Shown: positions 20,800 to 47,220, counted from the stretch's first letter. The stretch is 64,000 nucleotides of DNA from Candidatus Aminicenantes bacterium (GCA_963702005.1 OY969696.1:1440001-1504000); one strand, 5' to 3'. Notes: a model not told the origin generated them from the letters alone. Translations and numbers: made by a program.

Positions 20800-20800
20800 C

Positions 20801-21262
20801 TTAGCGCTCCTCCGCAGCGATTTCCTTGACGATATCCTTCGGTCTCATCAGCGGGATCCCTCGTTCGTTGACCTTCCGGAAGACGACCTGGGTCTCGGAG
20901 ATGGAGAGGATATAGCCGTCCGCGAATCGGGTTCCGGTGTGGACGAATAGGGGAAAGCCCTGGGGGCCGCTGAGGATGGCCGTCAGCTTGCCCCGGGCCT
21001 TGACGATCCCCTTGAGGATGAGATCATCGATGGCCAACTCGTTCATCTCCCCGGAACCCGCCTTCTCCTTGAACTCCTTGCCCGCCAGGAGGTCCTTGAA
21101 GGGATCCCTCCGGCCGGCCGGGTTGTAGAGGGAAGGCTTGGACAGATCCAGCCCCTCGAGCGTAGGCTCTTGAGAACCGGCGGCCGTGGTCTGGGCCATG
21201 ACCAGCCCCGAGGCTAAGGTCAGGAACGCCAAAACCAGCAAGCCGTGGACAATTTTTCTCAT
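20801..21262 (-). CDS. pilP: Type IV pilus assembly protein PilP-like
   Basis: YNPAGRRDPF motif, L.LKGIV; position between pilO and pilQ. Confidence 0.8.
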   Translation of the reverse strand: MRKIVHGLLVLAFLTLASGLVMAQTTAAGSQEPTLEGLDLSKPSLYNPAGRRDPFKDLLAGKEFKEKAGSGEMNELAIDDLILKGIVKARGKLTAILSGPQGFPLFVHTGTRFADGYILSISETQVVFRKVNERGIPLMRPKDIVKEIAAEER

Positions 21263-22517: not shown

Positions 22518-22523
22518 GGTTGG

Positions 22524-32149: not shown

Positions 32150-32731
32150 ATGGACGGAAAAGCGGTCGGCAACATGCCGGACATTTCTGTCCTGATAGCC
32201 CGCGTCAAGGAAGGAGATAAAAATGCGTTCCAGGACATCACCCGACGGTATCAGCAGGGGGTTTTCGTCCTGGCCTACTCCTTCTTCCGGAACAGGGAAG
32301 ACGCCTTGGACATCGTCCAGGAAACCTTCCTCCGTCTTTATGAGAAGGCCGTCCTTTTCCGTGACGGCGAGGAGTTTCAGGCCTGGTTGTTCCAGATCGC
32401 CCGAAACCTGTGCATCGACAGCTACCGCCGGAACCGGAAGCGCCGCGCGGACCGGGCGGCTGATGCCCGGCTCGAAGACCTGCCTTCAACGGCCGACGGT
32501 CCCGCCGATTGCGAACGTCGGGCCGACCTCCGGGCCCTGTTCCGATCCGTCCTGCCAAGGCTGGCCGAGAAGCAAAGGACGGTCTTCGTCATGAAACATT
32601 ACAACGATATGCCTTATCAGGAGATCGCCCGGACGCTCGGGATAGCGGTCGGGACGGTCAAGTCTCTGCATTTCAAGGCCGTCCGGAACCTGCGGAAGCA
32701 TCTTGGACCGCACATGGGGATGACGTCATGA
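32150..32731 (+). CDS. ECF sigma-70 family RNA polymerase sigma factor
   Basis: DALDIVQETF, FQAWLFQIARNLCID (region 2), YQEIARTLGIAVGTVKS (region 4); start uncertain (32141/32150/32174). Confidence 0.92.
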   Translation: MDGKAVGNMPDISVLIARVKEGDKNAFQDITRRYQQGVFVLAYSFFRNREDALDIVQETFLRLYEKAVLFRDGEEFQAWLFQIARNLCIDSYRRNRKRRADRAADARLEDLPSTADGPADCERRADLRALFRSVLPRLAEKQRTVFVMKHYNDMPYQEIARTLGIAVGTVKSLHFKAVRNLRKHLGPHMGMTS

Positions 32732-33528
32732 GCGATTGCAAAACTTATCGGGATCAGTGGGTCGCTTTTCTGAGCCGGGAGCTCGCTCCCGAGGACGAGC
32801 GGGCGATGTCCGCTCATCTCGGCTCCTGCCGGCGCTGCCGGAGCGAGGTCGATTCCCTCCGGGCTCTATTCGGCGAGGCGGAATCGTTCCGGGAGGAAAC
32901 CCGGGCCGTCCTGGCCTCCGTGGATTGGGAGACGCTCCCCTCCCGGATCGCGGCGCGGCTTCCCGAACGGCCCGCTCCTCTCGCCAAGACCGCCGCGCAG
33001 CCCCGGCTTAGGGCGCAGCTTTGGAGCCCGCGGCTCCGTCCCGCCCTGGCTGGACTCCTGGTCGGGCTCCTCCTCGGCGGCCTGGGCATGTTCTTCGCGC
33101 TGCGACGGCCCTCCGCCCGGAGGCCGGCCGCGGAGTTTTTCGCCTCGGGCGAATTCCTGGACAGGGTCGAGCTCGAGATGGCCCGCCGCCAGACCCTGGA
33201 CTACCTGGATAAAAGCCAGTACCTGTTCCTCGACGTCCTGGAGAGGTCGGGCGGGAGCGGTCCCGCCGGCCCCGACTCCCTGGCTTCCCAGGAAGCCCGG
33301 GAACTCATCTCCCGCAAGAAATACCTCAATCCTCAGCTCGATAAGTTCGGGATGGCCAAGGCCAAGGACCTCTGCGACCAGATCGAGCTCCTCGTCTTCG
33401 AACTCTCCCAACTCTCACCCCGGGTCAGCGCGGCCGAGGTCGATCGGATTCGAGCCATGGTCCGGGACCGGCAGCTTCTGATGAAGATCCGGCTCGTCAA
33501 GAAAGAGCTGGAACGCAGCGAGGTCTGA
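32728..33528 (+). CDS. Zinc-binding (zf-HC2/ZAS) transmembrane anti-sigma factor
   Basis: HLGSCRRC (HxxxCxxC), one TM helix, helical periplasmic part; ATGA overlap with the sigma gene. Confidence 0.85.
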   Translation: MSDCKTYRDQWVAFLSRELAPEDERAMSAHLGSCRRCRSEVDSLRALFGEAESFREETRAVLASVDWETLPSRIAARLPERPAPLAKTAAQPRLRAQLWSPRLRPALAGLLVGLLLGGLGMFFALRRPSARRPAAEFFASGEFLDRVELEMARRQTLDYLDKSQYLFLDVLERSGGSGPAGPDSLASQEARELISRKKYLNPQLDKFGMAKAKDLCDQIELLVFELSQLSPRVSAAEVDRIRAMVRDRQLLMKIRLVKKELERSEV

Positions 33529-33529
33529 C

Positions 33530-34375
33530 ATGAGAAAAACCGGTTGGATACTCAGCCTTTGGCTCCTGGCCGCTCCGGTCACGGGCGTGTTCGCCCAGGC
33601 CCGGCCGGACGAGACGCTCTTTCAGGACGCCAAGCTCCTCCTCTTCGACAAGCAGTGGGCGGATGCCCAGGCCAAGCTCGAAGAGCTCATCGGCAGCCAT
33701 CCGGCCAGCCCCCTCCGGGGCCAGGCCATCTTCTACCGGGCCAAGTGCCTCAACGAGCGGAAGGGGATGGAGAAGGAGGCCCTGGCCGCCTTCAAAGACT
33801 ACCTTGCCCTCAAGGAGCGCAACGACAGCCTGATCGAGGAATCGGAAAACTCGATCATTGACCTCGCCTTCGATCTCTACGGCCGGGGAGAGAAGTCCTA
33901 TCTCAAGGAGATCGAGGACCGGCTCGGCAGCAAGAACCGCTCCATCAAGTACTACGCGGCTTTCAAGCTCAGCTACGCGGCGGACAAAGCCGTCGCCGCC
34001 AAGGGCGTGCCCATCCTGAAGCTGATCGTCGAGTCCGAGCGGAACCTCGAGCTCAAGGACCGGGCTAAGATCGCCCTCCTCCGCATCTCGCCCGAAAGCC
34101 TCAGGGGTGTGTCGGACGAACCGGCAGTCATGGGGCCGCGAGTCCTCAAGATCAGGATCTACGAGAAGGGCCGGAAAGAGCCGAGCCTGTCTCTCAACAT
34201 CCCCTGGGCCTTGGCCGACCTGGCGCTGAGCTCGATTCCCGAGGAGGAGCGGGCCAAGCTCCGCAAGAAAGGCCACGACATCGACTCGATCATTCGCGAC
34301 CTGAGCAGGGACAAAGGGACCATCTTCGAGGTCGTGGCTGAGGACCAGAGCGTCATCAAGATTTGGATCGAATAA
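33530..34375 (+). CDS. Exported TPR/HEAT-like protein with C-terminal shared domain (copy 2)
   Basis: Signal peptide; BamD/TPR-like helices (LFQDAK..LF...W.DA, HPASP); LSLNIPWAL...VIKIWIE. Confidence 0.7.
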   Translation: MRKTGWILSLWLLAAPVTGVFAQARPDETLFQDAKLLLFDKQWADAQAKLEELIGSHPASPLRGQAIFYRAKCLNERKGMEKEALAAFKDYLALKERNDSLIEESENSIIDLAFDLYGRGEKSYLKEIEDRLGSKNRSIKYYAAFKLSYAADKAVAAKGVPILKLIVESERNLELKDRAKIALLRISPESLRGVSDEPAVMGPRVLKIRIYEKGRKEPSLSLNIPWALADLALSSIPEEERAKLRKKGHDIDSIIRDLSRDKGTIFEVVAEDQSVIKIWIE

Positions 34376-34866: not shown

Positions 34867-35049
34867 GCCGTCCCGAATTGATAAAATAGACGGGTCTTCG
34901 CCTATGAAGGGATGTCAGCGGAAGGGGTCGGAAGCCGCTATTCCGGATTGGAGGGAGTCAGGAGCGATGAAGAAGACGACAACGCCGAGAAAAGCGATCA
35001 GGAAACGGAGGGCCGGAGTCGTCCCAGGAATTCTTTTTGGAGGCGAACG

Positions 35050-36342
35050 ATGGGATTAACGATGGTCGAGAAAATCCTGTCCAAGGCCGTCCGACGGTCC
35101 GCGGTCAGGGCCGGGGATGTGGTCGAGCCCGCCGTGAACATGGCCATGTCCCACGAAAACGCAGCCCTGGTCATCAACCAATTCCTTGAAATATACAGGG
35201 ACACAGGCCTCGAGCCCAAGGTCTGGGACCCTTCGAAAATCGCGATTATCTTCGACCATCGGATCCCGGCCGAGAGCTCCAAGACGGCGACCAACCAGAA
35301 GAAGATCCGCGCCTTTGTCGCCCAGCAAGGCATCAAGAAGTTCCATGATATCCGGGGCGATCAAGGAGGGATCTGCCACCAGATTCTCCCCGAGAACGGT
35401 TACGTCCTCCCCGGAAAAGTCGTAATCGGGACCGACAGCCACACGACGAGCCACGGGGCGTTGGGGGCGTTCGCCTTCGGGATCGGCGCGACCGAGATGG
35501 CCTCGGTCTGGACGTTGGGTACGGTCCTCAACGTCGAGGTCCCCAAGACGATCAAGGTCATGGCCATAGGCCGCTTCCCGCGCTACGTCCTCCCCAAAGA
35601 TCTTATCCTCTATCTGATCGGACAACTGACGGCCGAGGGCGCGAACTTCAAGGTGATCGAGTTCCACGGCCCGGTGATCAAGGCCATGTCCACCTCGGGC
35701 CGGTTCGTCCTCTGCAATATGTCGGTTGAAGCCGGGGCGACCTCAGGGATCGTCCCGCCCGACGCCGAAACCGTTCGCTACCTTCGCTCCGAGGCCAAGG
35801 TCAAGGGCAAGCTCGACCCCTTCGGCCCCGACCCGGACGCCGACTACGACCGGGTTCTCGAGATCGACGTTTCTTCGCTCGAGCCCATGGTCGCCTGCCC
35901 CCACGCCGTTGACAACGTCAAGCCGGTCGGCGCGGTCCGGGGTGTCAAGGTCCAGCAGGTCGTCATCGGATCCTGCACCAACGGCCGGCTCGACGACCTG
36001 GCCGTAGCCGCCCGCATCCTCAAGGGCAAGTCGGTCGCCAAGGGGACCCGCATGCTCGTGTTTCCGGCCTCCTACCGGATCTACGGCCAGGCTCTCAGGC
36101 TCGGCTACATCGCGGACTTCATCAAAGCGGGCGCGGTCGTCATGAATCCCGGCTGCGGGCCCTGCCTGGGCGTCCACCAGGGCGCGCTCGGAGACGGCGA
36201 AGTCGCCCTGGCGACCACCAACCGGAACTTCAAAGGCCGAATGGGAAACTCCAACGCCGAGGTCTATCTCTCGTCGCCGGCCGTGGCTGCGGCGAGCGCC
36301 ATCAAGGGCGCGATCACCGACCCGAGACAAGGAGGACGTTGA
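35050..36342 (+). CDS. 3-isopropylmalate dehydratase/homoaconitase family large subunit (LeuC/HacA-like)
   Basis: GLTMVEKIL, FDH, GICHQ, GTDSHT, GSCTNG, PGCGPC, TTNRNFKGRMG. Confidence 0.92.
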   Translation: MGLTMVEKILSKAVRRSAVRAGDVVEPAVNMAMSHENAALVINQFLEIYRDTGLEPKVWDPSKIAIIFDHRIPAESSKTATNQKKIRAFVAQQGIKKFHDIRGDQGGICHQILPENGYVLPGKVVIGTDSHTTSHGALGAFAFGIGATEMASVWTLGTVLNVEVPKTIKVMAIGRFPRYVLPKDLILYLIGQLTAEGANFKVIEFHGPVIKAMSTSGRFVLCNMSVEAGATSGIVPPDAETVRYLRSEAKVKGKLDPFGPDPDADYDRVLEIDVSSLEPMVACPHAVDNVKPVGAVRGVKVQQVVIGSCTNGRLDDLAVAARILKGKSVAKGTRMLVFPASYRIYGQALRLGYIADFIKAGAVVMNPGCGPCLGVHQGALGDGEVALATTNRNFKGRMGNSNAEVYLSSPAVAAASAIKGAITDPRQGGR

Positions 36343-36836
36343 TGGCCAAAGTTGTCCTGAAACTTGGCGACGATATCTCCACCGACATCATCTATCCCGG
36401 ACGCTATCTGGCGACGGTTCTCCCGAGCGAGACGCCCCAGTACGCTTTCGCCGACAACGCCGAGTTCAACGGCCGCCTCAAACGAAACGAGATACCGGCC
36501 GGGAGCGTAGTCGTCGCCGGCAAGAACTTCGGCTGCGGCTCCTCGCGCGAGCAGGCAGCCTCGACCCTCAAGGGTCATGAGCTTACGGTCGTGGCCCGCA
36601 ACTTCGCCCGGATCTTTCTCCAGAACTCGATCAACCTCGGGCTGCGGACCATCGTCTGCCCGGGGATCGAAGCCGAGGAGGGGGACGACCTGGAGATCAC
36701 TCCGGATAAGGGCATCAACCTGACGAGCGGGAAAAGCTTTCCGCTCGAGCCGCTCCCCAAGGCCCGCCAGGCCATCATCGACGCCGGCGGCCTCATTCCT
36801 TACACACGGAACAGGATCTTAGAGAAACTCAAGTGA
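36342..36836 (+). CDS. 3-isopropylmalate dehydratase/homoaconitase small subunit (LeuD/HacB-like)
   Basis: GDDISTDIIYPGRYL, GKNFGCGSSREQA, FARIF..N.IN.GL, IIDAGGL; TGATG coupling. Confidence 0.92.
   Translation: MAKVVLKLGDDISTDIIYPGRYLATVLPSETPQYAFADNAEFNGRLKRNEIPAGSVVVAGKNFGCGSSREQAASTLKGHELTVVARNFARIFLQNSINLGLRTIVCPGIEAEEGDDLEITPDKGINLTSGKSFPLEPLPKARQAIIDAGGLIPYTRNRILEKLK
36750..36805 (+). repeat. Direct repeat copy L (56 bp, 55/56 identical to 43100-43155)
   Basis: CCGCTCCCCAAGGCCCGCCAGGCCATCATCGACGCCGGCGGCCT(C/G)ATTCCTTACAC. Confidence 0.95.
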
Positions 36837-36893
36837 TGACCTATATTTTCTCATAAGTTGGCAGCCGAAAGCTCTTATTGAGATCCTTTCTTC

Positions 36894-36919
36894 AGGTCGA
36901 AGACGATCGGATTGACGCC
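36894..36919 (-). pseudogene. 26-bp remnant of the GH20 gene (matches 43753-43778, 25/26)
   Basis: AGGTCGAAGACGATCGG(A/G)TTGACGCC; encodes GVNPIVFDL on the minus strand in both places. Confidence 0.8.
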
Positions 36920-36955
36920 TGATAGCCTTCTTTTAAAATCTTTTTGCCGCAGCTA

Positions 36956-36989
36956 CGGCCTACACCCTCCTCGTCCTGGGGCTGGTCCT
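36956..36989 (+). pseudogene. 34-bp remnant of the 5' end of the DMT gene (matches 44407-44440, 31/34)
   Basis: CGGCCTACACCCTCCTCGTCCTGGGGCTGGTCCT vs CGGCCTACACCGTCCTCGCCCTGGGGTTGGTCCT (AYTLLVLGLVL vs AYTVLALGLVL). Confidence 0.8.
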
Positions 36990-37016
36990 CAGCGGGTCCT
37001 GCTCGGCCGAGGGGGG

Positions 37017-39170
37017 CTAGGCGGGGTACGGTCTCTCGGCGATGCCCCTGTAAACGGCCTGGGAGAAATTGATCGAACGCATCGGCGCCTGGGTGATTCC
37101 TTCCTCGAAGTAGTGGGCGGAGAGGCCCATGATGCGGCCGAAAATGAAGAGGGCCTTGGCCAGCCTGGGATCGAGGCCCATGTCTGCGATGATGGCGCCG
37201 ATGACGCCGTCGACATTGATGGGCAGGCTGAGGCCGCGGACTTCCTTGAGCATATCCTCGGCGATCTTGGAAAGGGCGACGCAGGTTCCGGCTGACCCGG
37301 TCTTCCCGGCGAGCCGCCACAGAACGTCGCGCCGGGGGTCCTTGGTATGGATACGGTGACCCATGCCTTCGATCCGCTTCCCCTGATGGATGTATTCGCG
37401 GATGACGGTCCGGACGGCGTCCTCGGGGCTGAGCCCTTTCTCGGCTGAGAGGCCGGCCGCGCGGCAAAAAAACACGGCCGCCTTTTCGCCGGCCCCGCCG
37501 TGGACGTCTGTGATGGCGCCCACGCCCTGGGCCACAGCGACTTCATAGGACGCCCGGACAGACGAGGCGATGAGGGTCGCCTGCGCCGAGGGGGGCGTGA
37601 CGCCATGGTCGATGGAGGCCACGATGATCGCCTCGAGCATGCGCGCCTTCTCTTTGTCCAAGGACATCGCGCCGCTGACGGCCCGGTAGACGGCGTGGGC
37701 GAAGGGAGCGTCGGGCGCCGACGCCTGGAGGGCCGAGCCGTGGGCCTGGAGCCCGGCCAGATATGCCGTGAAGCGTCCGAGGGCGAAGACGGTTTTCTCG
37801 GCTTGGGCCAGCCTCCCCTGGGGCTTGAAGCCGGCCAGCGTCTCGTCGTTGAGGATGCATTTTTGGAGAGTTTTGGACAGGTCTTCCTCGGGATTCCGGA
37901 CGACGGACGGGAAGGGCTTGAGGGCCGCCTCCATGGCCAGACGCGTGAGGGAGGCCGTCCGCGCCGAGTCCGGCCATTCCCCTTGGATGATGAGATAGGC
38001 GGCTTCGACAAGAGAGGCCCGTTCGATGAGGTCCTGGACTCGATATCCCCGCACGACGAGATTGTTGGGTTCGACTTTCGTGATCAGGGTTGTCCAGCTG
38101 GGACTGGGAGGCGGAGCTTCCCATAGGGACTTCATCTTGGCGTAGTAGCGCTCGGGCTGGAAATAGGTTTTCCCCTTGAGCTTGGACCGGGCGATGTCGA
38201 TTAGATCGTATTGGCTGTTGACGACGGGGACCCCGGCCGCCTCCAGCGCCTTTTTCTTGGACAGGAAAGTGCCCGTTTCGACGCCCGGCGTGATGATGGC
38301 CCCGGCATGGCCCATGGTTTTTCCCTCCGGGGCGTGGGCGCCCGAGATGAGGGCCACGAGGGGCTTGGGGTATCTGTTCGGATGGGCCCGGATGTCCTGG
38401 GCCAGAAGCTCCTCCTGGCACCCGCCGATTTCTCCAGCGACGATGACCAGGTCCGTCTTCTCGAACTCCATGGCTAAGGGGATGAGGTCGCGGAACGTGG
38501 AGCCGATGGCCCCGTCGCCGCCGATGCCGATCACGGCGTTCTGGGCGATGCCGATGCTGGCCATGGCGTCGGACATGTGATAGAGGATCGCTCCGCTGCG
38601 AGAGACGATGGTCACGCCTCCGGCCCCATAGCGCCCGGGCGAGATCTCCTCCGGGTAAAACACATCGGGCAGCATCCCGATCTTGATACGCTCCGGCGGA
38701 AAGATCAGCCCCGGCGTGTTCCCGCCGATGAGGACGGTCCCGTGCTTCCGGGCGGAAACGATGATGTCCCGGACGTCCTTCAAGGGGAGCCCTTCCGAGA
38801 TGAGGACGACCAAGGGAATCCCCGCTTCGATCGCTTCCAGGGCGGTCTCTTTCGCCGTCGAATAGTGACGCCAGATGCTCGCCGCGACGACGTCGGGATG
38901 CTCCGCCAGGCATTCTTTCACCGAGTCGAACACCGGGATGACCTCGTGGACGCGGGTTCCGCCCTCGCCCGGCGCGACGCCGGCCACGATGGACGTCCCG
39001 AAGTCGTGCATCAACCCGGCGTGTTTGGACCCCTGCCCGCCGAGGCCAAGAATGATCGTATCCAGCCGCCCTGTTTGAGCCACCCGCTCGGCCAGCCGCG
39101 GCCGGACCTTCCGGATGATGTGGTAGAGCATGCCGTCCGTCGCTTGGATCTTCTCGTCCATCACTTCCAC
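37017..39170 (-). CDS. Fusion: succinyl-CoA-ligase alpha-like CoA-binding subunit + citryl-CoA lyase/citrate-synthase-like domain (ATP-citrate-lyase A-like architecture)
   Basis: ISEG.P, GGNTPGLI, VSRSG, GIGGD, GEIGG, MGHAGA (phospho-His); then WTTLITKVEPNNLVVRGY, DHG..PPS, HGGA, GMGHRIH..DPR, NVDG. Confidence 0.88.
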   Translation of the reverse strand: MEVMDEKIQATDGMLYHIIRKVRPRLAERVAQTGRLDTIILGLGGQGSKHAGLMHDFGTSIVAGVAPGEGGTRVHEVIPVFDSVKECLAEHPDVVAASIWRHYSTAKETALEAIEAGIPLVVLISEGLPLKDVRDIIVSARKHGTVLIGGNTPGLIFPPERIKIGMLPDVFYPEEISPGRYGAGGVTIVSRSGAILYHMSDAMASIGIAQNAVIGIGGDGAIGSTFRDLIPLAMEFEKTDLVIVAGEIGGCQEELLAQDIRAHPNRYPKPLVALISGAHAPEGKTMGHAGAIITPGVETGTFLSKKKALEAAGVPVVNSQYDLIDIARSKLKGKTYFQPERYYAKMKSLWEAPPPSPSWTTLITKVEPNNLVVRGYRVQDLIERASLVEAAYLIIQGEWPDSARTASLTRLAMEAALKPFPSVVRNPEEDLSKTLQKCILNDETLAGFKPQGRLAQAEKTVFALGRFTAYLAGLQAHGSALQASAPDAPFAHAVYRAVSGAMSLDKEKARMLEAIIVASIDHGVTPPSAQATLIASSVRASYEVAVAQGVGAITDVHGGAGEKAAVFFCRAAGLSAEKGLSPEDAVRTVIREYIHQGKRIEGMGHRIHTKDPRRDVLWRLAGKTGSAGTCVALSKIAEDMLKEVRGLSLPINVDGVIGAIIADMGLDPRLAKALFIFGRIMGLSAHYFEEGITQAPMRSINFSQAVYRGIAERPYPA

Positions 39171-40444
39171 CCCTTACGATCGAAGGCGTAGCGGATCCCT
39201 TCCCGGATGACCTCGGCCATGATCTTCCGGTTGCCGACCGTGATGTGCATGTCCTCGAGCTCTTCGGGCGTTTCCCGCTTGGCCCGCTCCAGGAAGTCGC
39301 GGGCGCTCGGCAGGTCCGTCCCCACCATCCGGCCGATCACGGGCACGACGCGCCGCCCGCTCTTCCGCCTCTCCCTCAGGCATCCGACCAGGCCGCGAAT
39401 GAAAACATCGCACGAGGAGATGCCGCCGAACCGGGACGTGATGACGAGGTCGACGGTTTCATTGTCGAACAGGAGGTTGAACATCTCGGCGACCATGGCC
39501 ACGGTCGGGCCGCCGCCCGAGTCCATGAAGTTGACGGGCACCACGCGTCCGCCGAAAAACCTGTCGCCGACGTTAGCGACTTCATCGATGGAAAAAATCC
39601 CGTAGCCCGCCCCGCCGGGGACAAGCCCCACGTACAGCCGTTCCGGGTCCTTCCGGTGGTCCTCGGGCAGGAGGTCGACATAACGGAAGCCGGCTTCCCG
39701 CGCCCGGACTTCGTTCCGGGTTGGCTCGGAGACGTCATGCCGGACCTTCTCGAGCCCCAGGAAACGGAGGAGGCCGTTCTGGCGGTACAGGCCGTTGTCG
39801 TCGAGGACGACCTTGGCGTCCGCGGCCACGGGGCCGGCCGGCGAAATGAGGAGGGGATTGATCTCGGCCACCTTGCAGTCGTACTTCTGGAAAACCGTAT
39901 AGACCCGGGATATAACGGCCTTCAGCCGGTCGTGGTCCTCCTCGCCCAGCCCGAGGCCGGAGGCGAGGAAGGACGCCAACCGGAGGGCCGTGTCCTTGGG
40001 GAGGCTCTCGTCGTTGTCGGGGAGATCGACCCTCATGATCTTCTGTGGCGACTCCCGGGCCACCTGCTCGATGTCCACGCCTCCGGCCGGGCTGACGATG
40101 ACGGTGACATTGAAGTCGGCGGGATTCATTGTCACCCCGACATAGCACGCGCCGGCACCCTCGACCGCCTCCTCGAGCAGGATCCTGTCGACGACATAGC
40201 CGCCGATCCTCCGGCCCAGAATTTTCAGGGCCTGGGCGACCGCCTCCTGAGCGCTGCCGGCTTTTTGGATGCCGCCGGCCTTTCCCCGGCCGCCGACGAG
40301 GACGAGCGACTTGATCATCGCCGGTAGACGCAGCCCCGGCAGCTCCGGGATCTCCTCGGCCCGGCGGACCAAGCCGTAAGCCTTGGGGACGGGGATGCCT
40401 TCCTTTTCAAACAGCTGCTTGGCTTCGTTTTCGTAGAGTCGCAT
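39161..40444 (-). CDS. ATP-grasp succinyl-CoA/citryl-CoA ligase beta-like subunit
   Basis: MRLYENEAKQLF..GIPVP, GGRGKAGG, GGVDIE, EINPL, DAKV.LDDN, PVNFMDSGGG, FGGI. Confidence 0.88.
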   Translation of the reverse strand: MRLYENEAKQLFEKEGIPVPKAYGLVRRAEEIPELPGLRLPAMIKSLVLVGGRGKAGGIQKAGSAQEAVAQALKILGRRIGGYVVDRILLEEAVEGAGACYVGVTMNPADFNVTVIVSPAGGVDIEQVARESPQKIMRVDLPDNDESLPKDTALRLASFLASGLGLGEEDHDRLKAVISRVYTVFQKYDCKVAEINPLLISPAGPVAADAKVVLDDNGLYRQNGLLRFLGLEKVRHDVSEPTRNEVRAREAGFRYVDLLPEDHRKDPERLYVGLVPGGAGYGIFSIDEVANVGDRFFGGRVVPVNFMDSGGGPTVAMVAEMFNLLFDNETVDLVITSRFGGISSCDVFIRGLVGCLRERRKSGRRVVPVIGRMVGTDLPSARDFLERAKRETPEELEDMHITVGNRKIMAEVIREGIRYAFDRKGWK

Positions 40445-40489
40445 CTCAACCTCGCATTAGAACGAACCCGCCCGGGCCGGGGTCACTGT

Positions 40490-42328
40490 TTATCCGCCTT
40501 CGATTCCGGATTTCCCCCCCGAGTTTAATAATCCGCCCCTCCGGAAAATCGCCATTTGAGTTTCCGAGAACGGTTTGACGTAGAGGACTTCGCCGGTCCG
40601 ATGCCGTCTCACCTCGCCCGAGACAAAGTCGATGGTGACGTCCTCGCCGCTCTCCAGGCCCGGCGAGAGGAGGTCGCCCGTGAGGGCCGGCAGCCCGGCG
40701 TTGATCGCGTTTCGCTCGTAAATGGCGCCGAACGAGCGGGCGACAATGGCCTGGATCCCCAGACTCTTGAAGCAGTCGACGGCCTGCTGGCGCGAGGAGC
40801 CGGCGCCGAAGTTGCCGGCCGTGACCACGATGTCGCCGCGCGCGGCCTTCTTGGCGAAATCTTCCCAGCCGGCGAGGTTGTTGAAGGTGTATTGGCCCAT
40901 TTGAGCGATGTCCGTGATGGCCAGATACCTGTTGTGGAAGATCATGTCCGTGTCGATGTTGTCCTTGTCGATGACCCAGACGCGTCCTTTGATGACGGAG
41001 GGCCTGTCCACGCCGGCCGCAATCTTTCTTCCTCCTTCTTTCCGGGAAACGGTCTTGAGCCCGGCCGCTGCAAAAAGGACGGGCTTCTCGGGGATGTCCG
41101 AGGCCGCCGTAATGCGGCCGGCAACGGCGGAGGCGGCGGCCGTGGCGGGCGAGGCGAGGTAGACGTTCCCCTTCCCCTGCTTGCCAGCGAAATTCCTGTT
41201 GCCGGTGCTGACCGTGACCTCGCCGGGGCCGTTTTGGCCGATCTGTCCCTCGGCGCAGCCGGCGCAACCGGGATTGCCCACGAGGGCGCCGGCCTTGATG
41301 AACGTGTCCATCAGACCCGTTTCAAGGCATTTCTGCCAGATCGTCCGCGTGGCCGGGACGATTTTCAGGACGACTCCCGGGGCCGCCTTGCGGCCCTTGA
41401 GGATATCGGCGGCCGCGAGCATGTCCTCGTAGCGGCCGTTGGTGCATGACCCGATGAACGCGGAGTCGATCTTGGTCCCGGCGACGTCGCTCACGGGGAC
41501 GACGTCCTCGGGATGACCCGGGCGGGAGATCAGGGGGATGAGGTCCGAAACGTCGATTTCGACAGCCCTGTCGTAGGCCGCGTCGGAGTCGGCGAACGGG
41601 GCCCGGCCCTTTTTGCCGAGCGTGTTAAAATGTTCCAGCACGGCGTTGTTGGGAGGAAAGAGGAGGATGATCGCCCCCATTTCCGTAGCCAGGGAGGCGA
41701 TGGTGATCCGCTCGCTGAGCCCCAGGCCGTTGACGGCTTGACCGTAGAGCTCGGCGCTCATTCCCAGGAGGCCGGCCGCGCCGAACTCACGGAGGAGCCT
41801 CAAGCCGATATCCTTTGCTGTGGTTTCTGAGGGCGGATTCCCCTTCAGGATGACCTTTATGGATCCGGGGACCTTGAACCAGACCTGGCCGTAGGCCCAG
41901 GCGGCGGCGATGTCCTGGTCTCCCATCCCCTGGCCAAAGGCGCCGATAGCCCCCAGGATGTTGGCGTGGGAGTCGGTCGAGACGAGCGTGCCCCCCGGCA
42001 GGACCAGGCCCTCGTCGATGGCGATGTGCGTGCCGATCCCGGCATCGATATCATGGACGATGATGGACTGCTCCCGTGCGAAAACTCGGCAGAGCTGCTG
42101 GTTGGCCGCGTACTTCTGGTCCGAGCCGCCCGGGTTGCAGTCGAAGGTGAAGAATGTCCTGGAGACGTCGTGGACGCCGAGCTTGTTGTCCGTCAGGTTC
42201 TTGACGACGCTGGCGCCGCCGAAATCGCGGGCGATCCGGGCATCGATGCGCACGTCGGCGATGTCGCCGGGCTTGACCTTCCGCCCGGAATGGTCGGAGA
42301 GGATTTTCTCGATGATGGTCTGTCCCAT
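40490..42328 (-). CDS. Single-chain aconitase/IPM dehydratase family protein (large+small subunit fused)
   Basis: MGQTIIEKIL, TDSH, GSCTNG, PGCAGC, STGNRNF.GKQG; C-terminal swivel DNIDTD, NFGAGSSRQQA. Confidence 0.9.
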   Translation of the reverse strand: MGQTIIEKILSDHSGRKVKPGDIADVRIDARIARDFGGASVVKNLTDNKLGVHDVSRTFFTFDCNPGGSDQKYAANQQLCRVFAREQSIIVHDIDAGIGTHIAIDEGLVLPGGTLVSTDSHANILGAIGAFGQGMGDQDIAAAWAYGQVWFKVPGSIKVILKGNPPSETTAKDIGLRLLREFGAAGLLGMSAELYGQAVNGLGLSERITIASLATEMGAIILLFPPNNAVLEHFNTLGKKGRAPFADSDAAYDRAVEIDVSDLIPLISRPGHPEDVVPVSDVAGTKIDSAFIGSCTNGRYEDMLAAADILKGRKAAPGVVLKIVPATRTIWQKCLETGLMDTFIKAGALVGNPGCAGCAEGQIGQNGPGEVTVSTGNRNFAGKQGKGNVYLASPATAAASAVAGRITAASDIPEKPVLFAAAGLKTVSRKEGGRKIAAGVDRPSVIKGRVWVIDKDNIDTDMIFHNRYLAITDIAQMGQYTFNNLAGWEDFAKKAARGDIVVTAGNFGAGSSRQQAVDCFKSLGIQAIVARSFGAIYERNAINAGLPALTGDLLSPGLESGEDVTIDFVSGEVRRHRTGEVLYVKPFSETQMAIFRRGGLLNSGGKSGIEGG

Positions 42329-42417
42329 GCTGGACTCCGTATCGGCGTTTTTCTTCAGGGGGCCGTCATCCGGACGTCTTCTCCCCCCGCGCGGTTGGAG
42401 AGGACGAGCCCCGCTCT

Positions 42418-42996
42418 TCAACCCTCGATGATCATCCCTTTTTGTTTCATGACGAGGGGATCGAAGGTCGCAAAATCCGCCTGATGGATGAGGACGGCTT
42501 CGACAACCTGCGGCCTGCCCTCGCCCTCCTTGGCGTGGCAGACGATGATGTTGATGATATCCCCCGGCAGGCCGCATTCGGCGGCTAGGATGGCCCCGGA
42601 AACCGGGTGCCGGGCGTATTGACCCGACAGGCTCTTGCGAAAACCTCCCTTCCCATCGGGTTCGATCTCGAGAAGCTTCCCCACGTCATGAAGCAGGCCG
42701 CCGGCATAGAGGCGGTCGAAGTCGATGGCATAGGGCAGCTTGGCATAGGCCTCGGCCTGGGCCCGCCCCAAGGCCACGGCCCCCTCGGTGACGGCAATCG
42801 TGTGCTCGACGAAATTAACGCCGAGCGGGTCCGTGAGCAGGGTGAAGGGCATCCGTTTCAGCTCTTCGATGGATGTCCAACCGCCCCTCTCACAGGCGAG
42901 AACGAAGACCTTGATGATCTTAGCGTGAAGCGCCTGGTCCTTAATTCGGCCCAGCTGCTTTTCGAACAGCGACTCGACGTCTTTATGGCTGATCAT
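42418..42996 (-). CDS. HD-domain metal-dependent hydrolase
   Basis: EHT...LLHDVGK...RH...H...HQAD. Confidence 0.85.
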   Translation of the reverse strand: MISHKDVESLFEKQLGRIKDQALHAKIIKVFVLACERGGWTSIEELKRMPFTLLTDPLGVNFVEHTIAVTEGAVALGRAQAEAYAKLPYAIDFDRLYAGGLLHDVGKLLEIEPDGKGGFRKSLSGQYARHPVSGAILAAECGLPGDIINIIVCHAKEGEGRPQVVEAVLIHQADFATFDPLVMKQKGMIIEG

Positions 42997-43058
42997 GCCG
43001 GCCCTCCTCGAACGCGGCAGAGGCGCTGCGATCGAAGCGGCGCCTGGAAACAGGTTTA

Positions 43059-43087
43059 AAGATAGCATTTGGGGACGAGATTTTCAA
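43059..43087 (-). promoter_or_regulatory. Putative sigma70 promoter of the HD-aconitase-ligase-lyase operon
   Basis: TTGAAA-17 nt-TATCTT with TG extension on the minus strand. Confidence 0.55.
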
Positions 43088-43099
43088 GGGCGGGGACTC

Positions 43100-43201
43100 C
43101 CGCTCCCCAAGGCCCGCCAGGCCATCATCGACGCCGGCGGCCTGATTCCTTACACGAGAAAGCGGCTCCTGGAAAAGACGCCGGGGGCCGCGAAAGGCTG
43201 A
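43100..43201 (+). pseudogene. Orphan second copy of the leuD-like 3' end (direct repeat copy R, 43100-43155, plus alternative C-terminus)
   Basis: Encodes PLPKARQAIIDAGGLIPYTRKRLLEKTPGAAKG* vs PLPKARQAIIDAGGLIPYTRNRILEKLK* in the intact gene. Confidence 0.9.
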
Positions 43202-43205
43202 CGAA

Positions 43206-44300
43206 TCAGGCCGGCTTTTTTCTCAGGCGCTCCGATAAGGCTACCAGCGCCGGGAGCTTCGACGTCTCGCCGGCCGTCGGACTCCCCCAGATCGTGCACA
43301 GGTGGCCCAGCATCCGGTCCGTGTCGAATTTCAGGGAATAGTTGAACAGGGCTTCGGCCGCCCGGACATTCCGGAAGCTCGTCGGCAGGACTCGGAATCC
43401 CTTGTCCAGAAAAACCTTGATGGACGGGTAGGCCTTCATGGACTCGTAATGCCAGTCGCAGATGACGATGTCCTTGGGGATCCTGTCCAGGGCCCGCCAG
43501 GTCCCGTTGTAGGAGGATTCCCAGACTCCGTAGCTCATGGCCGGGCCTTCGATGAGGCGGTCTCCCCACAGGTACATTTCCTTGCCGCGCTCTTTGACGA
43601 TATGTCCGTAGAGGTCGTTGACGGCCTTGGCGAAGAGGTCGGCGGGATCCCTGCCCTTGCAGCGCGGGCAGTAATCGCTCGCGATCAGGAAGACCTCGTC
43701 CATGCCGACGTGGAGGCCGTCCGCCTCGAAGACGTCGAGAAGCTCGTCCAGGAGGTCGAAGACGATCGGGTTGACGCCGGGATGGAGAGGGCACCAGCTC
43801 CGGCAGTAGATGTCCTTGTTCCCCGCGAATTTCCCGGGTGTTTCGTCGAACTCGGGATAGCGGACCAAGAGCGGAAAGGTTTTCTCCTCCCAGGATTGGT
43901 GCCCCAGGGACTGAAACTCGGGGATAAGCCGGATTTTGTATTCGCGGCCGAGGGCGACGATTTGCTTGACGGTCTCCCGGGAAACCGGATCCGCGCCGCG
44001 CAGCTCGGGATGAGACGTGTACTCGTAGTTATAGTCCATTTCGACGAAAAGGAGGTTGATTCCGGCGCCGGCCAGGGCGGGGATCTCCTTGATGAGCTCC
44101 TCGGCGGCTTTTTGGGATTCGATGAGGACGTGAAGTCCGAAGACAAGAGGCCGGGCGGGGAGGGGGATGATCTCGGCCGGCCGCGTCGGACGGCATCCGG
44201 GCTGGATCAGCATAGCGCTCGTCACCGCCAGAACGGCGAGACCGAGCTTCCAGAGATCGGGGCCTTTTCGATCGTTGAGCGCGAACCTTGGCTGTGTCAT
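43206..44300 (-). CDS. Glycoside hydrolase family 20-like (beta-N-acetylhexosaminidase-type), probably a lipoprotein
   Basis: LIPEFQSLGH, HVGMDE catalytic pair, WGD, DWHY; hydrophobic N-terminus ending IQPGC. Confidence 0.8.
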   Translation of the reverse strand: MTQPRFALNDRKGPDLWKLGLAVLAVTSAMLIQPGCRPTRPAEIIPLPARPLVFGLHVLIESQKAAEELIKEIPALAGAGINLLFVEMDYNYEYTSHPELRGADPVSRETVKQIVALGREYKIRLIPEFQSLGHQSWEEKTFPLLVRYPEFDETPGKFAGNKDIYCRSWCPLHPGVNPIVFDLLDELLDVFEADGLHVGMDEVFLIASDYCPRCKGRDPADLFAKAVNDLYGHIVKERGKEMYLWGDRLIEGPAMSYGVWESSYNGTWRALDRIPKDIVICDWHYESMKAYPSIKVFLDKGFRVLPTSFRNVRAAEALFNYSLKFDTDRMLGHLCTIWGSPTAGETSKLPALVALSERLRKKPA

Positions 44301-44372
44301 GGCGCGGCCTCCTATTCCTCGTCCCATTCTATCACCGTCCCTCCGAAACGGGAAAGCGGATATAATACCTCT

Positions 44373-45176
44373 ATGCCCGTCACTCTGAGCCTGGCCGCGG
44401 CGGCCGCGGCCTACACCGTCCTCGCCCTGGGGTTGGTCCTGATGAAAAAGGGGATCGGCTGGATCGGGCACAAAGGCCCCAAGGACAGAGCTTTCCGGAC
44501 AAGCCTGGCCGTCTGGCTGTCCGGTTTCTTCCTCAGCAACCTTTACGTCCTCCCGGCCGCGGCGGCGCTCGGGACGCTGTCCCCCCATATTGTCGCCTCC
44601 TTCGCGGGTTGGGGGGTGGCGGTCATGGTCGTCCTGGCCGCTTTGGTACTGGGAGAACGGCTCTTCGCCTCCGACCTTGCCTTCACGGCCCTGATCGCCT
44701 CCGCCATCGTCCTGCTCAATATCTACGAGGGGGCTGACGCGGGAAACGTCCCCCGCTCCGCCCCGTTTGCAGCCGTCGCTATCCTTCCTTTTCTGGCCGT
44801 CCTTCCCGCGTTTGCGAGGTCCGCCCGCCCCAGGCTCAAAGCGCTTCTGTTCGCCGCCGTCTCCGGCGCCTTGGCCGGACTGATCGTCGTGATCATGAAG
44901 GTCCTCGTCCGCCTCCACGGCTTCCGGATCGTCCGCTATCCCGGCTCGCTCTATTTCTATCTTTATCTGCTGTTCTCGCTGGCGGCCTTTCTCGCCCTCC
45001 AGCTCGCCTTCAAGCGGGCGGGGCTGATGCGGGTCGGGCCCGTCCAGTACTCGGCCTCGATCGCCTATCCGGTCCTCGGCTCGCTCCTCGTCTTCGGGGC
45101 ACGGCTCCATCCCGTCCAGTGGGCCGCCCTGGCCATCCTCATCATCGGCGTCGCCGGGATCCTCCGCAAACGTTAA
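44373..45176 (+). CDS. DMT-superfamily (NIPA/EamA-like) membrane protein
   Basis: ~9 TM helices, LALGLVLMKK, LVLGERL, VFGARL. Confidence 0.7.
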   Translation: MPVTLSLAAAAAAYTVLALGLVLMKKGIGWIGHKGPKDRAFRTSLAVWLSGFFLSNLYVLPAAAALGTLSPHIVASFAGWGVAVMVVLAALVLGERLFASDLAFTALIASAIVLLNIYEGADAGNVPRSAPFAAVAILPFLAVLPAFARSARPRLKALLFAAVSGALAGLIVVIMKVLVRLHGFRIVRYPGSLYFYLYLLFSLAAFLALQLAFKRAGLMRVGPVQYSASIAYPVLGSLLVFGARLHPVQWAALAILIIGVAGILRKR

Positions 45177-45199
45177 AGCTATCCTTGAAGGTTGAGCGA

Positions 45200-45337
45200 G
45201 GGGTTGTGGGGTGAAGAGGCCCTACGAAGGGTCGAGCGGGCATGGTCCGATTTGTCTTCAAATCGGGAGCGAGACCCGAAGTGGGAGCGGGTTTGACTCG
45301 CTGGGGCAAACACGCGTCCTCTGAACTCCCACACCCC
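45200..45337. mobile_element. 138-bp MITE-like/structured element
   Basis: Imperfect 20-bp terminal inverted repeats (GGGGTTGTGGGGTGAAGAGG / CCTCTGAACTCCCACACCCC), flanking direct repeat GAGCGA, internal hairpins. Confidence 0.55.
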
Positions 45338-45417
45338 GAGCGAGGCCGGCAGGAAATTTATTTTTACCGGGTTTTATGGTAATCTTTTGAAACCAATTCC
45401 GGAGAGAGGAGTCGACC

Positions 45418-46533
45418 ATGGCCAAGTATAAGATCGCGATCCTGCCCGGCGACGGGGTGGGCAAGGACGTCGTCGAAGCGACGATGATCGTCCTCAAGAA
45501 GCTCCGGGTCAACGCCGAGTACATCTATGGCGATATCGGTTGGGAGTTCTGGCGCAAGGAGGGGAACGCTCTTCCCGACCGGACCATCCAGCTCCTCAAG
45601 GGGACGGACGCCTGTCTGTTCGGCGCCATCACCTCCAAACCCAAGGAGGACGCGGCCGCCGAGCTCGATCCTTCCCTCAGGAGCAAGGGCTTATCCTACT
45701 TCAGTCCGATCGTCCGACTCCGCCAGGAGTTCGACCTGTATACGAACCTCCGTCCCTGCAAGGCTTACCCGGGAAATCCCCTCAATTATAAAGACAAGAT
45801 CGACCTGGTTGTCTTCCGGGAGAACACCGAGGGCATGTACGCCGGGGTCGAGTTCTTCCCGCTCCCCCAGGGCGTCAAGGACGCCCTCTCCATCCATCCC
45901 AAGATGAAGCCGTTCAAGGACGTTCCCCTCGACCAAATCGCCGTCTCGACCCGAATCATGACCCACAAGGGCTGCGAACGTATCGTTCGGGCCGCCTTCG
46001 AGTTCGCCCGCAAGTACAAGCGGCGCTCGGTCACCGTCGTCGAGAAGCCCAATGTCCTTCGCGAAACGGGCGGTCTGATGCTCGCTGTATCCCGCGAGGT
46101 CGCCAGGGGCTATCCGGACATTCCTTTCAAAGACGCCAACATCGATGCCATGTGTATGTGGCTGGTCAAGAACCCCTACGACTACGACGTCCTGGTCGCC
46201 GAAAACCTGTTCGGCGACATCATCTCGGACCTGGCCGCCCAGCTCGTCGGCGGACTGGGCTTCGCCTCGGCCGGCAACATCGGCGACAAATACGCCGTTT
46301 TCGAGCCGACCCACGGCTCGGCCCCCAAATACGCCGGCATGAACAAGGTCAACCCGATCGCGACCTTCCTGGCCGCCAAGCTCATGCTGGACTGGCTGGG
46401 AGAAACCGGCCAGGCGGCCGCCCTCGAGGGCGCCGTCGCCGAAGTCATCAAAGACGGGAAAGCCCGAACCTACGATCTGGGCGGTAAAACGACGACCCTC
46501 GAGATGGGAGAGGCCGTCGCCGCCAGGCTCTGA
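45418..46533 (+). CDS. Isocitrate/isopropylmalate-family beta-decarboxylating dehydrogenase (homoisocitrate/isocitrate DH-like)
   Basis: LPGDGVG, YFSPIVRLRQEFDLYTNLRP, RENTEG.Y, NLFGDIISD, FEPTHGSAPKYAG, TYDLGG. Confidence 0.92.
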   Translation: MAKYKIAILPGDGVGKDVVEATMIVLKKLRVNAEYIYGDIGWEFWRKEGNALPDRTIQLLKGTDACLFGAITSKPKEDAAAELDPSLRSKGLSYFSPIVRLRQEFDLYTNLRPCKAYPGNPLNYKDKIDLVVFRENTEGMYAGVEFFPLPQGVKDALSIHPKMKPFKDVPLDQIAVSTRIMTHKGCERIVRAAFEFARKYKRRSVTVVEKPNVLRETGGLMLAVSREVARGYPDIPFKDANIDAMCMWLVKNPYDYDVLVAENLFGDIISDLAAQLVGGLGFASAGNIGDKYAVFEPTHGSAPKYAGMNKVNPIATFLAAKLMLDWLGETGQAAALEGAVAEVIKDGKARTYDLGGKTTTLEMGEAVAARL

Positions 46534-46545
46534 GCCTCGACGGAA

Positions 46546-47220
46546 ATGATTATCCTGGCCGTCGATACCACGACGCCGGCCGGTTCCGTGGCGCTCCTCC
46601 GGGACGGGACGCTTCTGGCCGAGATCAACTCCGAGTCGGGCCTGACCCACTCCGAGCGGCTTCTGGCCTCGGTCGAGGCCGTTCTCGGCTCCCAGAAAAT
46701 CGCGCTCTCCGGCGTCGACGGATTCGCCGTGGCGGCCGGGCCCGGTTCCTTCACCGGCATCCGGATCGGACTCAGCACCGTCAAGTCGTTCTGCTTCGCT
46801 TCGGGAAAGCCCGGCGTTCCCGTCTCGACGCTCGAGGCGCTGGCCCTCAAGCTCGCCGCTTCCGGCGGCCGGCTTGTGTGTCCGATGCTCGACGCTAAAA
46901 AGGGCGAGGTTTACGCGGCCTTGTACGAGTCGAAGGGCGGGCGGCTCGAGGAGTTCCTTCCCCAAGGGGCCTACCTCCCCGATGCGTTCCTGGCCCGGCT
47001 GCCCTCCCGGCGCGTCGTTCACTTCCTTGGCAACGGGGCCGTCCTCTATAAAGAAAATATCGCGGCCCGGCTTGAGGACAGGGGAGTCTTCGTCCTGCGC
47101 TCGCCCTTTATCGGATTCGAGGTCGGAAAGCTCGGAGGTGAGGCGCTCAAGGCGGGGAAGGGGCTCTCCGGCGCCGATCTGCAGCCTTTCTATTTCCGGA
47201 AATCCCAAGCGGAGGAATAA
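46546..47220 (+). CDS. tsaB: tRNA threonylcarbamoyladenosine biosynthesis protein TsaB
   Basis: ILAVDT, HSERL, GPGSFTGIRIG, DAKKGEVY, P.Y.R. Confidence 0.93.
   Translation: MIILAVDTTTPAGSVALLRDGTLLAEINSESGLTHSERLLASVEAVLGSQKIALSGVDGFAVAAGPGSFTGIRIGLSTVKSFCFASGKPGVPVSTLEALALKLAASGGRLVCPMLDAKKGEVYAALYESKGGRLEEFLPQGAYLPDAFLARLPSRRVVHFLGNGAVLYKENIAARLEDRGVFVLRSPFIGFEVGKLGGEALKAGKGLSGADLQPFYFRKSQAEE

Follow-up and report, generated by a model that had tools for sequence, protein, structure and literature searches.

The step that cleaves or synthesises citrate sets the direction in which the tricarboxylic acid (TCA) cycle runs and how much energy it yields, and it is the usual genomic marker of the reductive cycle. 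Several described systems for this step resemble an operon found in a window of 64,000 nucleotides from a wetland Candidatus Aminicenantes bacterium (GCA_963702005.1, OY969696.1:1440001-1504000; positions below are counted from the first letter of this window). The operon encodes an HD-domain protein, an aconitase-family hydro-lyase, an ATP-grasp beta subunit and a CoA-binding alpha subunit fused to a lyase of the citrate synthase family (alpha::lyase). The citryl-CoA synthetase (CCS) CcsAB and the separate citryl-CoA lyase (CCL) Ccl of Hydrogenobacter thermophilus (PDB 6HXQ, 6HXP) have the same ATP-grasp beta subunit, CoA-binding alpha subunit and citrate-synthase-family lyase, and the same two-step chemistry is proposed. 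Type I ATP citrate lyase (ACL), represented by AclAB of Chlorobium limicola (6HXJ) and human ACLY, has a large subunit in which alpha is followed by the lyase and a separate ATP-grasp subunit. Type II ACL, from Magnetococcus (Mmc1_3638/3639) and the Riftia and Tevnia symbionts, is, like the operon's ligase-lyase, a non-canonical two-subunit candidate for citrate cleavage. In its hosts, genes for aconitase and isocitrate dehydrogenase lie in the same cluster (PMC6315080; PMC6783814), and the accessible parts of three reports describe it as postulated and not characterised (PMC6783814; PMC3522073; PMC6315080).

CCS homologues have been reported in Acidobacteria, Deltaproteobacteria and Caldithricales (10.1101/2022.10.25.513756), and ccsB::ccl fusions of Planctomycetes were placed between CCS/CCL and type II ACL (PMC5459899). 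Here, the fused alpha::lyase form is called V2, and the unfused homologous clusters with a short CCL are called V1. The V1 clusters are probably the CCS/CCL homologues of these two reports, as far as the accessible portions of the reports allow the comparison. A first-pass annotation of the window had proposed a candidate undescribed pathway, a claim that has to be narrowed, since CCS/CCL/ACL homologues, including those of Acidobacteria, are already in print (10.1101/2022.10.25.513756; PMC5459899). The HD gene, the linkage to LeuCD-like, PrpD-like and Iso_dh-family genes, and the fused form with a lyase of citrate synthase length are not mentioned in the accessible portions of the same papers. 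In a literature search, main texts gave no description of the V2 fusion or the HD/LeuCD/PrpD/Iso_dh linkage; supplements, which may list related fusions, lay outside its coverage. V2 is a variant of the CCS/CCL-ACL kind within a widespread and apparently undescribed gene module. From homology and gene context, we lean towards reading the V2 operon as a divergent ATP-dependent, reversible system between citrate and oxaloacetate plus acetyl-CoA, linked to 2-oxoglutarate.

Relatives of the fused ligase-lyase

The alpha::lyase gene (37017-39161, minus strand) encodes 714 residues from an ATG, with a GTG start of the open reading frame (ORF) at 39170. CoA_binding, Ligase_CoA and Citrate_synt (E 2.5e-38) domains were assigned to it, and the phosphohistidine-loop stretch is present in its translation. 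The beta subunit (39161-40444, minus strand, 427 residues) matches Pfam ATP-grasp_2 (E 1.4e-38) and Ligase_CoA. These ATP-grasp, CoA-binding and CoA-ligase domains are those of the succinyl-CoA synthetase SucCD, which is the closest sequence relative of both V2 ligase halves. Against solved structures in the PDB, the V2 alpha part scored 208.6 bits with SucD, 112 bits with AclA and 104.7 bits with the CCS small subunit, and V2 beta scored 156.6 bits with SucC, 55.3 bits with the CCS large subunit and 52.5 bits with AclB. The corresponding scores of V1 beta were 233 bits for SucCD, 120 for CCS and 83 for ACL. V2 differs from SucCD in its fusion to a lyase, in the replacement of the succinate-site stretches, and in falling under the NCBIfam equivalog cut-offs, with 225 bits for beta against the SucC cut-off of 370 and 221 bits for the alpha part against the SucD cut-offs of 353 and 336.

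The replaced stretches had been picked out in the first-pass annotation as altered acid-binding motifs, VPGGAGYG for VNGAGLA and SRFGG for NIFGG. Both motifs occur in the beta translation and show no variation in any of 26 family members, and in HMMER alignments they face the stretches that form the succinate site in solved SucC chains. The host genome's own SucC retains the SucC form of these stretches. The gain of an Arg and the loss of an Asn at this site suggest a larger and more acidic substrate.

An unrooted beta tree of 35 rows resolved V1, V2 and SucC as one clade each, with support of 100/100, 100/99 and 100/99, respectively, and placed V2 on the SucC side of the V1 branch. A quick unrooted alpha tree of 40 rows gave the same placement with weaker support (85-86) and set a type II ACL fragment from Endoriftia on a very long branch. 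Because of long branches, the placement of V2 is unsure in both trees. The trees hold V1, V2, SucCD, unnamed representatives and the one Endoriftia fragment, with no full-length CcsAB, AclAB or type II ACL, and the distance of V2 to CCS and ACL is read from the PDB bit scores, not from the trees. Bit scores and trees agree with the earlier view that the ligase halves are nearer SucCD than CCS or ACL. In one Chloroflexota locus (L184), a beta subunit nearer V2 (37% identity), placed beside V2 on a long branch, occurs with a V1-like alpha, a short CCL and an HD gene; this locus may represent a third variant.

The lyase core of V2 has its best solved match in the Hydrogenobacter CCL structure 6HXP, at 129 bits, and scored about 57 bits with citrate synthases. 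The whole domain is colinear with full-length citrate synthases and includes about 105 residues that Ccl is without. When aligned to 6HXP and two citrate synthases, it shows the same His/His/Asp and Arg-bearing stretches as both enzyme types, and across 18 CCL-type sequences these columns vary little or not at all. We take these shared stretches to serve catalysis and oxaloacetate binding. In NCBIfam, the V2 lyase belongs to a family that includes 2-methylcitrate synthases and remains under the cut-offs of the CCL group PRK06224 (205 vs 245, 181.8 vs 212 and 140.9 vs 193 bits), whereas the V1 lyase exceeds the citryl-CoA-lyase subfamily cut-offs (280.5 vs 212 and 277 vs 245 bits). A lyase domain of citrate synthase length bears on the relationship of citrate synthase, CCL and ACL.

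Compared with Hydrogenobacter CcsAB and Ccl, V2 has its alpha subunit fused to the lyase, a lyase of citrate synthase length and ligase halves that score far better against SucCD. Compared with type I ACL, it gives a Citrate_synth_N score of 28.6 bits, under the cut-off of 83, and no Citrate_bind match, in addition to the AclA and AclB scores given above. The V2 fusion is apparently independent of type I ACL, and other SucD::CCL fusions exist; in a library of 1.84 billion representatives at 50% identity, full-length alpha::lyase forms one cluster, followed by stand-alone lyases of 357-381 residues at 42-52% identity and by SucD::lyase fusions of 555, 575 and 725 residues at 33-39% identity. 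For type II ACL, the Endoriftia contig was located by a pattern derived from a published primer. Its large-subunit sequence, a fragment only, is 27-28% identical to residues 60-297 of the V2 alpha part, and the reductive-TCA partner genes korABCD and tfrAB do not adjoin the V2 operon in the window. Domain order, PDB scores and the Endoriftia identity support the earlier description of the fusion as resembling the ACL large subunit while lying outside ACL types I and II. Current databases name the fused protein "succinyl-CoA synthetase alpha subunit" or "citrate synthase", and a third, succinyl-CoA-synthetase-like fused ligase-lyase lineage would be missed or misnamed by marker-based surveys.

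The gene module in V1 clusters and in the window

A 5-row V1 lyase alignment was used as the query, which returned 284 relatives, and neighbourhoods were taken from the best 80 loci of the 284. In other Acidobacteriota the V1 order is beta, alpha, short CCL (about 260 residues), HD, LeuC, LeuD, dehydrogenase, and split large and small genes of a second aconitase-family hydro-lyase, termed Acn2. The 80 loci span Aminicenantes (Candidatus Aminicenans sakinawicola among them), other Acidobacteriota, Calditrichota and Marinimicrobia, and further Anaerolineae and other Chloroflexota, KSB1, WOR-3, Deferribacteres and Desulfobacterota. Where at least 5 kb of sequence follows, as in 51 V1 loci, HD, LeuC, the dehydrogenase and a second dehydratase are all present in 30. 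Such contiguous clusters, in distant Acidobacteriota and in Chloroflexota, Calditrichota, Marinimicrobia and KSB1, contain homologues of all six components that the first-pass annotation had grouped, and they strengthen its view of a functional unit. The linkage of HD, hydro-lyase (or PrpD) and dehydrogenase genes across phyla points to an unrecognised mode of running the citrate branch in abundant sediment and wetland anaerobes, possibly with ATP gain. In one V1 cluster (L101, 8741-10447, plus strand), a gene for a 568-residue nSTAND1 NTPase is inserted between LeuC and LeuD.

Seven of the 51 loci have none of HD, LeuC, dehydrogenase and dehydratase (L134, L154, L160, L161, L170, L177 and L182), and L154, L170, L177 and L182 are labelled as Desulfobacterota-type. 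In Desulfobacterota, the beta-alpha-CCL genes stand without HD or hydro-lyase genes, amid fumarase subunits, a fumarate-reductase-like flavoprotein, and iron-sulfur and CCG proteins. At L145, L154, L165, L170, L176 and L182, a fumarate-reductase-like flavoprotein, an iron-sulfur protein, two fumarase subunits, beta-alpha-CCL, Fer4 and CCG lie in one cluster, which resembles a compact gene set for a TCA or reductive TCA cycle.

V2 and V1 proteins share 39-43% identity in the lyase, 32-40% in alpha and 24-28% in beta. The window locus keeps the flanks of V1 clusters, which mark it as a V1 locus that has been rearranged. Upstream lie genes for a zf-HC2 protein (32509-33528, plus strand) and a TPR protein (33530-34375, plus strand), whose homologues flank the V1 beta gene in L097 at 33% and 43% identity, respectively; downstream of the dehydrogenase lies TsaB (46546-47220, plus strand; TIGR03725, 155 bits), and 11 V1 loci likewise have a TsaB-type gene after the cluster. 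The V1 beta, alpha, CCL, HD and Acn2 genes are missing between these flanks, and an inverted V2 cassette is found between LeuD and the dehydrogenase. The retained flanks, with the V2 cassette in place of the missing genes, suggest that the V1 parts were displaced by V2, and hence that the two forms have the same function.

All genes named in the first-pass annotation were recovered in the window by ORF calls, Pfam, NCBIfam and translation. A LeuC-like hydro-lyase large subunit (35050-36342, plus strand; Pfam Aconitase, E 1e-100; probable ATG start at 35050 within ORF 34912-36342) and a LeuD-like small subunit (36339-36836, plus strand; Aconitase_C) converge on the minus-strand operon, which runs HD > Acn2 > beta > alpha::lyase. 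The HD-domain protein is encoded by the first operon gene (42418-42996, minus strand; Pfam HD 38.7 bits, cut-off 22; probable start at Met25 of ORF 42418-43068). Acn2 of the window is a fused LeuC- and LeuD-type hydro-lyase (40490-42328, minus strand; Aconitase and Aconitase_C; probable start at Met84 of ORF 40490-42577). The Iso_dh-family beta-decarboxylating dehydrogenase (45418-46533, plus strand; Pfam Iso_dh, E 3.8e-89, 299.8 bits) had been described as adjoining the operon. That description does not hold, as a GH20-like ORF of 634 residues outside the module (43206-45110, minus strand; GH20 catalytic-domain match, 46 bits) intervenes and the dehydrogenase is near the operon in 0 of 26 related loci. 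The GH20-like ORF does not adjoin the operon in related loci.

The HD gene is found in 21 of 26 V2 loci and directly after CCL in 60 of the 75 V1 loci with room downstream; V2 and V1 HD proteins are 33-47% identical. The predicted model of the HD protein has a pLDDT (predicted local distance difference test) of 94.7, and its best Foldseek match is the YhaM HD domain (E 7.9e-5), followed by generic HD folds. No meaningful PDB sequence match was obtained, and an Atlas search returned generic HD clusters only. By domain and fold, the protein belongs to the HD phosphohydrolase superfamily. Of 22 aligned HD proteins, 7 have Ala in place of the His of the HD pair, and they are listed as those of L113, L120, L131, L147, L153, L159 and L171, although the L120 protein ends before that position. 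Six of the seven come from loci with a PrpD-like gene instead of Acn2. Complex prediction of V1 CCL with V1 HD gave a score of 0.00 in two runs, a result that weighs neither way.

Predicted reactions and competing substrates

In the proposed scheme, the ATP-grasp beta subunit and the alpha domain, with its CoA-binding site and phosphohistidine loop, would interconvert citrate, ATP and CoA with citryl-CoA, ADP and Pi, and the fused lyase domain of citrate synthase length would interconvert citryl-CoA with oxaloacetate and acetyl-CoA. Acn2, or a PrpD-family protein in other lineages, together with the LeuCD-like enzyme would act as a two-enzyme aconitase, from citrate through cis-aconitate to isocitrate, and the Iso_dh-family enzyme would link isocitrate and 2-oxoglutarate. 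The whole module would be an ATP-coupled, near-reversible citrate branch between oxaloacetate plus acetyl-CoA and 2-oxoglutarate. The substrate, the division of the hydro-lyase half-reactions and the direction are what we infer here. We read the module as a citrate branch because the CCL and citrate synthase stretches of the lyase are kept, the V1 lyase is a CCL by curated model, V1 beta matches Pfam Citrate_bind, V1 orthologues in Desulfobacterota have TCA neighbours, the content of V1-bearing genomes fits, and the dehydrogenase resembles NAD-dependent isocitrate dehydrogenases. The module genes are compact enough for direct biochemical tests.

Genome content was surveyed in 20 V1-bearing genomes. 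In five of them (G341, G343, G344, G345 and G355), no citrate-synthase-family match was found except the module's CCL, and four Chloroflexota have no aconitase of AcnA or AcnB size. G355 has two aconitase-family genes, one Iso_dh gene and one citrate-synthase-family gene, all of them in the module, and no HMGL-like gene was found. By gene content, the module is the only identifiable route from citrate to 2-oxoglutarate in some V1 genomes.

The host genome of the window is a single contig of 4,309,361 bases, 94% complete and 2% contaminated. The first-pass annotation had proposed, as a check, the absence of gltA and of homocitrate synthase. The former is contradicted by a canonical citrate synthase (330 bits), and the latter agrees with the host genome, in which no gene of the HMGL-like family (LeuA, homocitrate, citramalate or Re-citrate synthase) was found. 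The genome further encodes a separate canonical SucCD, 31-38% identical to the operon's ligase, a cluster of an AcnB equivalog, a second isocitrate dehydrogenase-like gene and malate dehydrogenase, five 2-oxoacid:ferredoxin oxidoreductase alpha-type genes and a class I fumarase.

Several observations weigh against the citrate branch. The host's citrate synthase, AcnB equivalog and second isocitrate dehydrogenase-like gene make the module redundant there for the conversion of citrate to 2-oxoglutarate, and a LeuCD-like enzyme beside AcnB does not readily fit. A clear fumarate reductase was not found in the host genome, where the best match to the flavoprotein C-domain reached only 35 bits, which makes a full reductive TCA cycle unlikely. 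The completeness of the 20 V1-bearing genomes is not given. V2 beta is without Citrate_bind, a domain that V1 beta matches at 28 bits, just above the cut-off of 26.8, and is only 24-28% identical to V1 beta. Both hydro-lyases fall under every aconitase, isopropylmalate isomerase and homoaconitase equivalog cut-off in NCBIfam, and the LeuD-type specificity loops match neither the solved M. jannaschii isopropylmalate isomerase small subunit nor that of homoaconitase. Citrate needs one aconitase, yet the module carries two hydro-lyases or a PrpD with LeuCD, a pattern characteristic of substituted citrates, for instance 2-methylcitrate and homocitrate. For the dehydrogenase, the best PDB matches are NAD-dependent isocitrate dehydrogenases (245 bits), with Thermus homoisocitrate dehydrogenase not far below at 231 bits; its best NCBIfam row is the homoisocitrate dehydrogenase model, under its cut-off, and no equivalog cut-off was reached.

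The dehydrogenase scores are among the points in favour of an elongation of 2-oxoacids. In this pathway acetyl-CoA and 2-oxoglutarate would form homocitryl-CoA, the ligase would free homocitrate with ATP, Acn2 or the PrpD-like protein would dehydrate it, the LeuCD-like enzyme would serve as homoaconitase, and the dehydrogenase would yield 2-oxoadipate, or the route would run in reverse. The best NCBIfam row of the LeuC-like subunit, in the HacA family and under its cut-off, points the same way, as does the lack of an HMGL-type homocitrate synthase in the host genome. The homocitrate route of Thermus and fungi uses two separate hydro-lyases. Against this, LysA is present in the host genome (C1:2464442-2465656; 299 bits, just above the cut-off of 297.9) and no LysX was found there, which indicates that lysine is made via diaminopimelate and not via 2-aminoadipate. 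The LysA match contains one TAA within the matched stretch. Moreover, the LeuCD-like genes and the dehydrogenase are kept in 6 of 15 genomes of the order without any ligase or lyase, where a homocitrate route would leave them no substrate; the small-subunit loop has no counterpart of the Arg seen in the solved homoaconitase; the lyase still has the oxaloacetate-binding stretches of CCL and citrate synthase; and orthologous V1 genes stand in TCA-type clusters. We consider homocitrate unlikely. The dehydrogenase itself is 75-80% identical across 15 of 15 genomes of the order, where it is the sole Iso_dh match in 9 of 15 (E<=1e-30), and is 63-81% identical to its V1-cluster counterparts. From these relationships, the Iso_dh-family gene probably encodes an isocitrate dehydrogenase.

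The second hydro-lyase raises the question of a methylcitrate-type route. Acn2 scored 402 bits with the NCBIfam subfamily PRK00402, above the cut-off of 385, and 306 bits with the aconitate hydratase model PRK07229, under the cut-off of 612. It is 64-83% identical across V2 loci and 49-52% identical to the split Acn2 genes of V1 clusters. In 12 V1 loci, a MmgE/PrpD-family gene occupies the Acn2 slot directly after the dehydrogenase, suggesting that Acn2 and the PrpD-like protein share one job. PrpD and AcnD are known alternatives of the methylcitrate cycle, which this exchange mirrors, and the lyase family includes 2-methylcitrate synthases, as noted above. The lyase and ligase could then act on 2-methylcitryl-CoA (propionyl-CoA plus oxaloacetate), with the PrpD-like protein or Acn2 as 2-methylcitrate dehydratase and the LeuCD-like enzyme as hydratase. 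This is highly improbable, because the PrpD-like protein scored 103 bits against a PrpD equivalog cut-off of 950, and the host genome yielded neither a PrpD nor any member of the PEP_mutase/methylisocitrate-lyase family over the cut-off. On chemical grounds, 2-methylisocitrate, a tertiary alcohol, should be no substrate for the clustered Iso_dh-type enzyme. Host genome content and the context of the orthologues thus disfavour both homocitrate and methylcitrate, the substrates that had been suggested beside citrate in the first-pass annotation.

The LeuCD-like pair was compared in the same manner. The LeuC-like subunit scored 556 bits with PRK00402, above the subfamily cut-off of 385, and reached no equivalog cut-off; the LeuD-like subunit scored 121 bits with the LEUD_arch subfamily, above the cut-off of 109. 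Each of 15 genomes of the order has a relative of the LeuC-like subunit, at 50-53% identity (81% in two genomes). Leucine biosynthesis was ruled out as the role of the LeuCD-like and isopropylmalate dehydrogenase-like genes, as the 94% complete genome has neither an HMGL-like gene nor IlvC. The host organism is probably auxotrophic for branched-chain amino acids, though it keeps these genes.

That LeuCD-type and isopropylmalate dehydrogenase-like enzymes occur without LeuA or IlvC would fit the activation and cleavage of another hydroxy-acid, such as citramalate, isopropylmalate, malate or an unknown acid, for example in a reverse-leucine-type or citramalate route of amino-acid fermentation. 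Among solved structures, the small subunit is nearest to the M. jannaschii isopropylmalate/citramalate isomerase (113 bits); this kinship and the accessory, patchy occurrence of the module are consistent with it. The change at the beta acid site, however, suggests a larger and more acidic substrate; the lyase retains its oxaloacetate-binding stretches, and to our knowledge its family is known only with oxaloacetate as the keto acid. The dehydrogenase is also housekeeping-like in the order. Such a substrate is quite unlikely.

Within the citrate reading, ATP-yielding synthesis of citrate is the favoured direction for genomes in which no citrate synthase was found. Citrate cleavage is possible in the host genome, where a citrate synthase, AcnB and a second isocitrate dehydrogenase-like gene are present. 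For example, 2-oxoglutarate derived from glutamate could be converted to acetyl-CoA and oxaloacetate, with phosphoenolpyruvate carboxykinase (PEPCK) adjoining the operon in seven V2 loci. A full autotrophic reductive TCA cycle in the host genome was considered and is doubtful, given the weak flavoprotein C-domain match. A broader proposal, which we put forward tentatively and with some doubt, is that the module replaces citrate synthase and aconitase in strict anaerobes in an energy-conserving way. It would comprise citrate synthesis from acetyl-CoA and oxaloacetate with substrate-level formation of ATP, an aconitase split between a dehydratase (Acn2 or the PrpD-like protein) and a LeuCD-type hydratase, a dedicated NAD-dependent isocitrate dehydrogenase and an obligatory HD partner of new function, and would be the only citrate branch in some Chloroflexota. 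The alpha::lyase of the window would then be a surviving intermediate form that links citrate synthase, CCL and ACL.

Spread of the fused form and other features of the window

A word-indexed search with alpha::lyase returned 661 relatives, of which the best 120 are 68-99% identical, 664-734 residues long and all equipped with ligase and citrate-synthase domains. V2 was located in 26 genome loci at 63-87% identity, mostly from Candidatus Aminicenantes. Of the operon genes, beta was recovered at 25 of these loci, alpha::lyase at 22, HD at 21 and the hydro-lyase at 20, with gaps at contig ends. The LeuC/LeuD-like pair lies inside the operon in five distant loci (L012, L013, L015, L017 and L018) and is partly seen in the operon at L016, L023 and L103.

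Among 201 sampled genomes of the phylum, three of them flagged as unpublished, a strong full-length alpha::lyase match was found in the window's genome only, the next best match (E 1e-54) coming from SucD. V2 was present in 9 of 151 sampled genomes of the class (8 of 103 of high quality), and within genera in 3 of 10 and 2 of 4. V2 is accordingly regarded as accessory and patchy, because it is rare in the class and uneven within genera. The sequencing runs listed with the operon comprise wetland and sediment DNA only, with no RNA run among them.

The PEPCK gene of the seven V2 loci is of the GTP type and is located on the upstream side of the operon. Downstream of the operon, about 10 Aminicenantes V2 loci have an L-lactate-permease-family gene, a second HD protein, DUF1015 and a histidine-kinase/receiver/HD-GYP protein. 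None of the lactate-permease-family, second HD, DUF1015, HD-GYP and PEPCK genes is near the operon in the window. On the strand opposite the GH20-like ORF, an ORF at 43302-45176 has a sub-threshold EamA match only in Pfam. Elsewhere in the window, type IV pilus assembly genes for the secretin PilQ, PilO and PilM are located at 18484-23600 on the minus strand. At 60111-63217, also on the minus strand, an Mrp/complex-I-type membrane subunit is paired with a 49-kDa/[NiFe]-hydrogenase-like large subunit, which suggests a membrane-bound, energy-converting hydrogenase-type complex.

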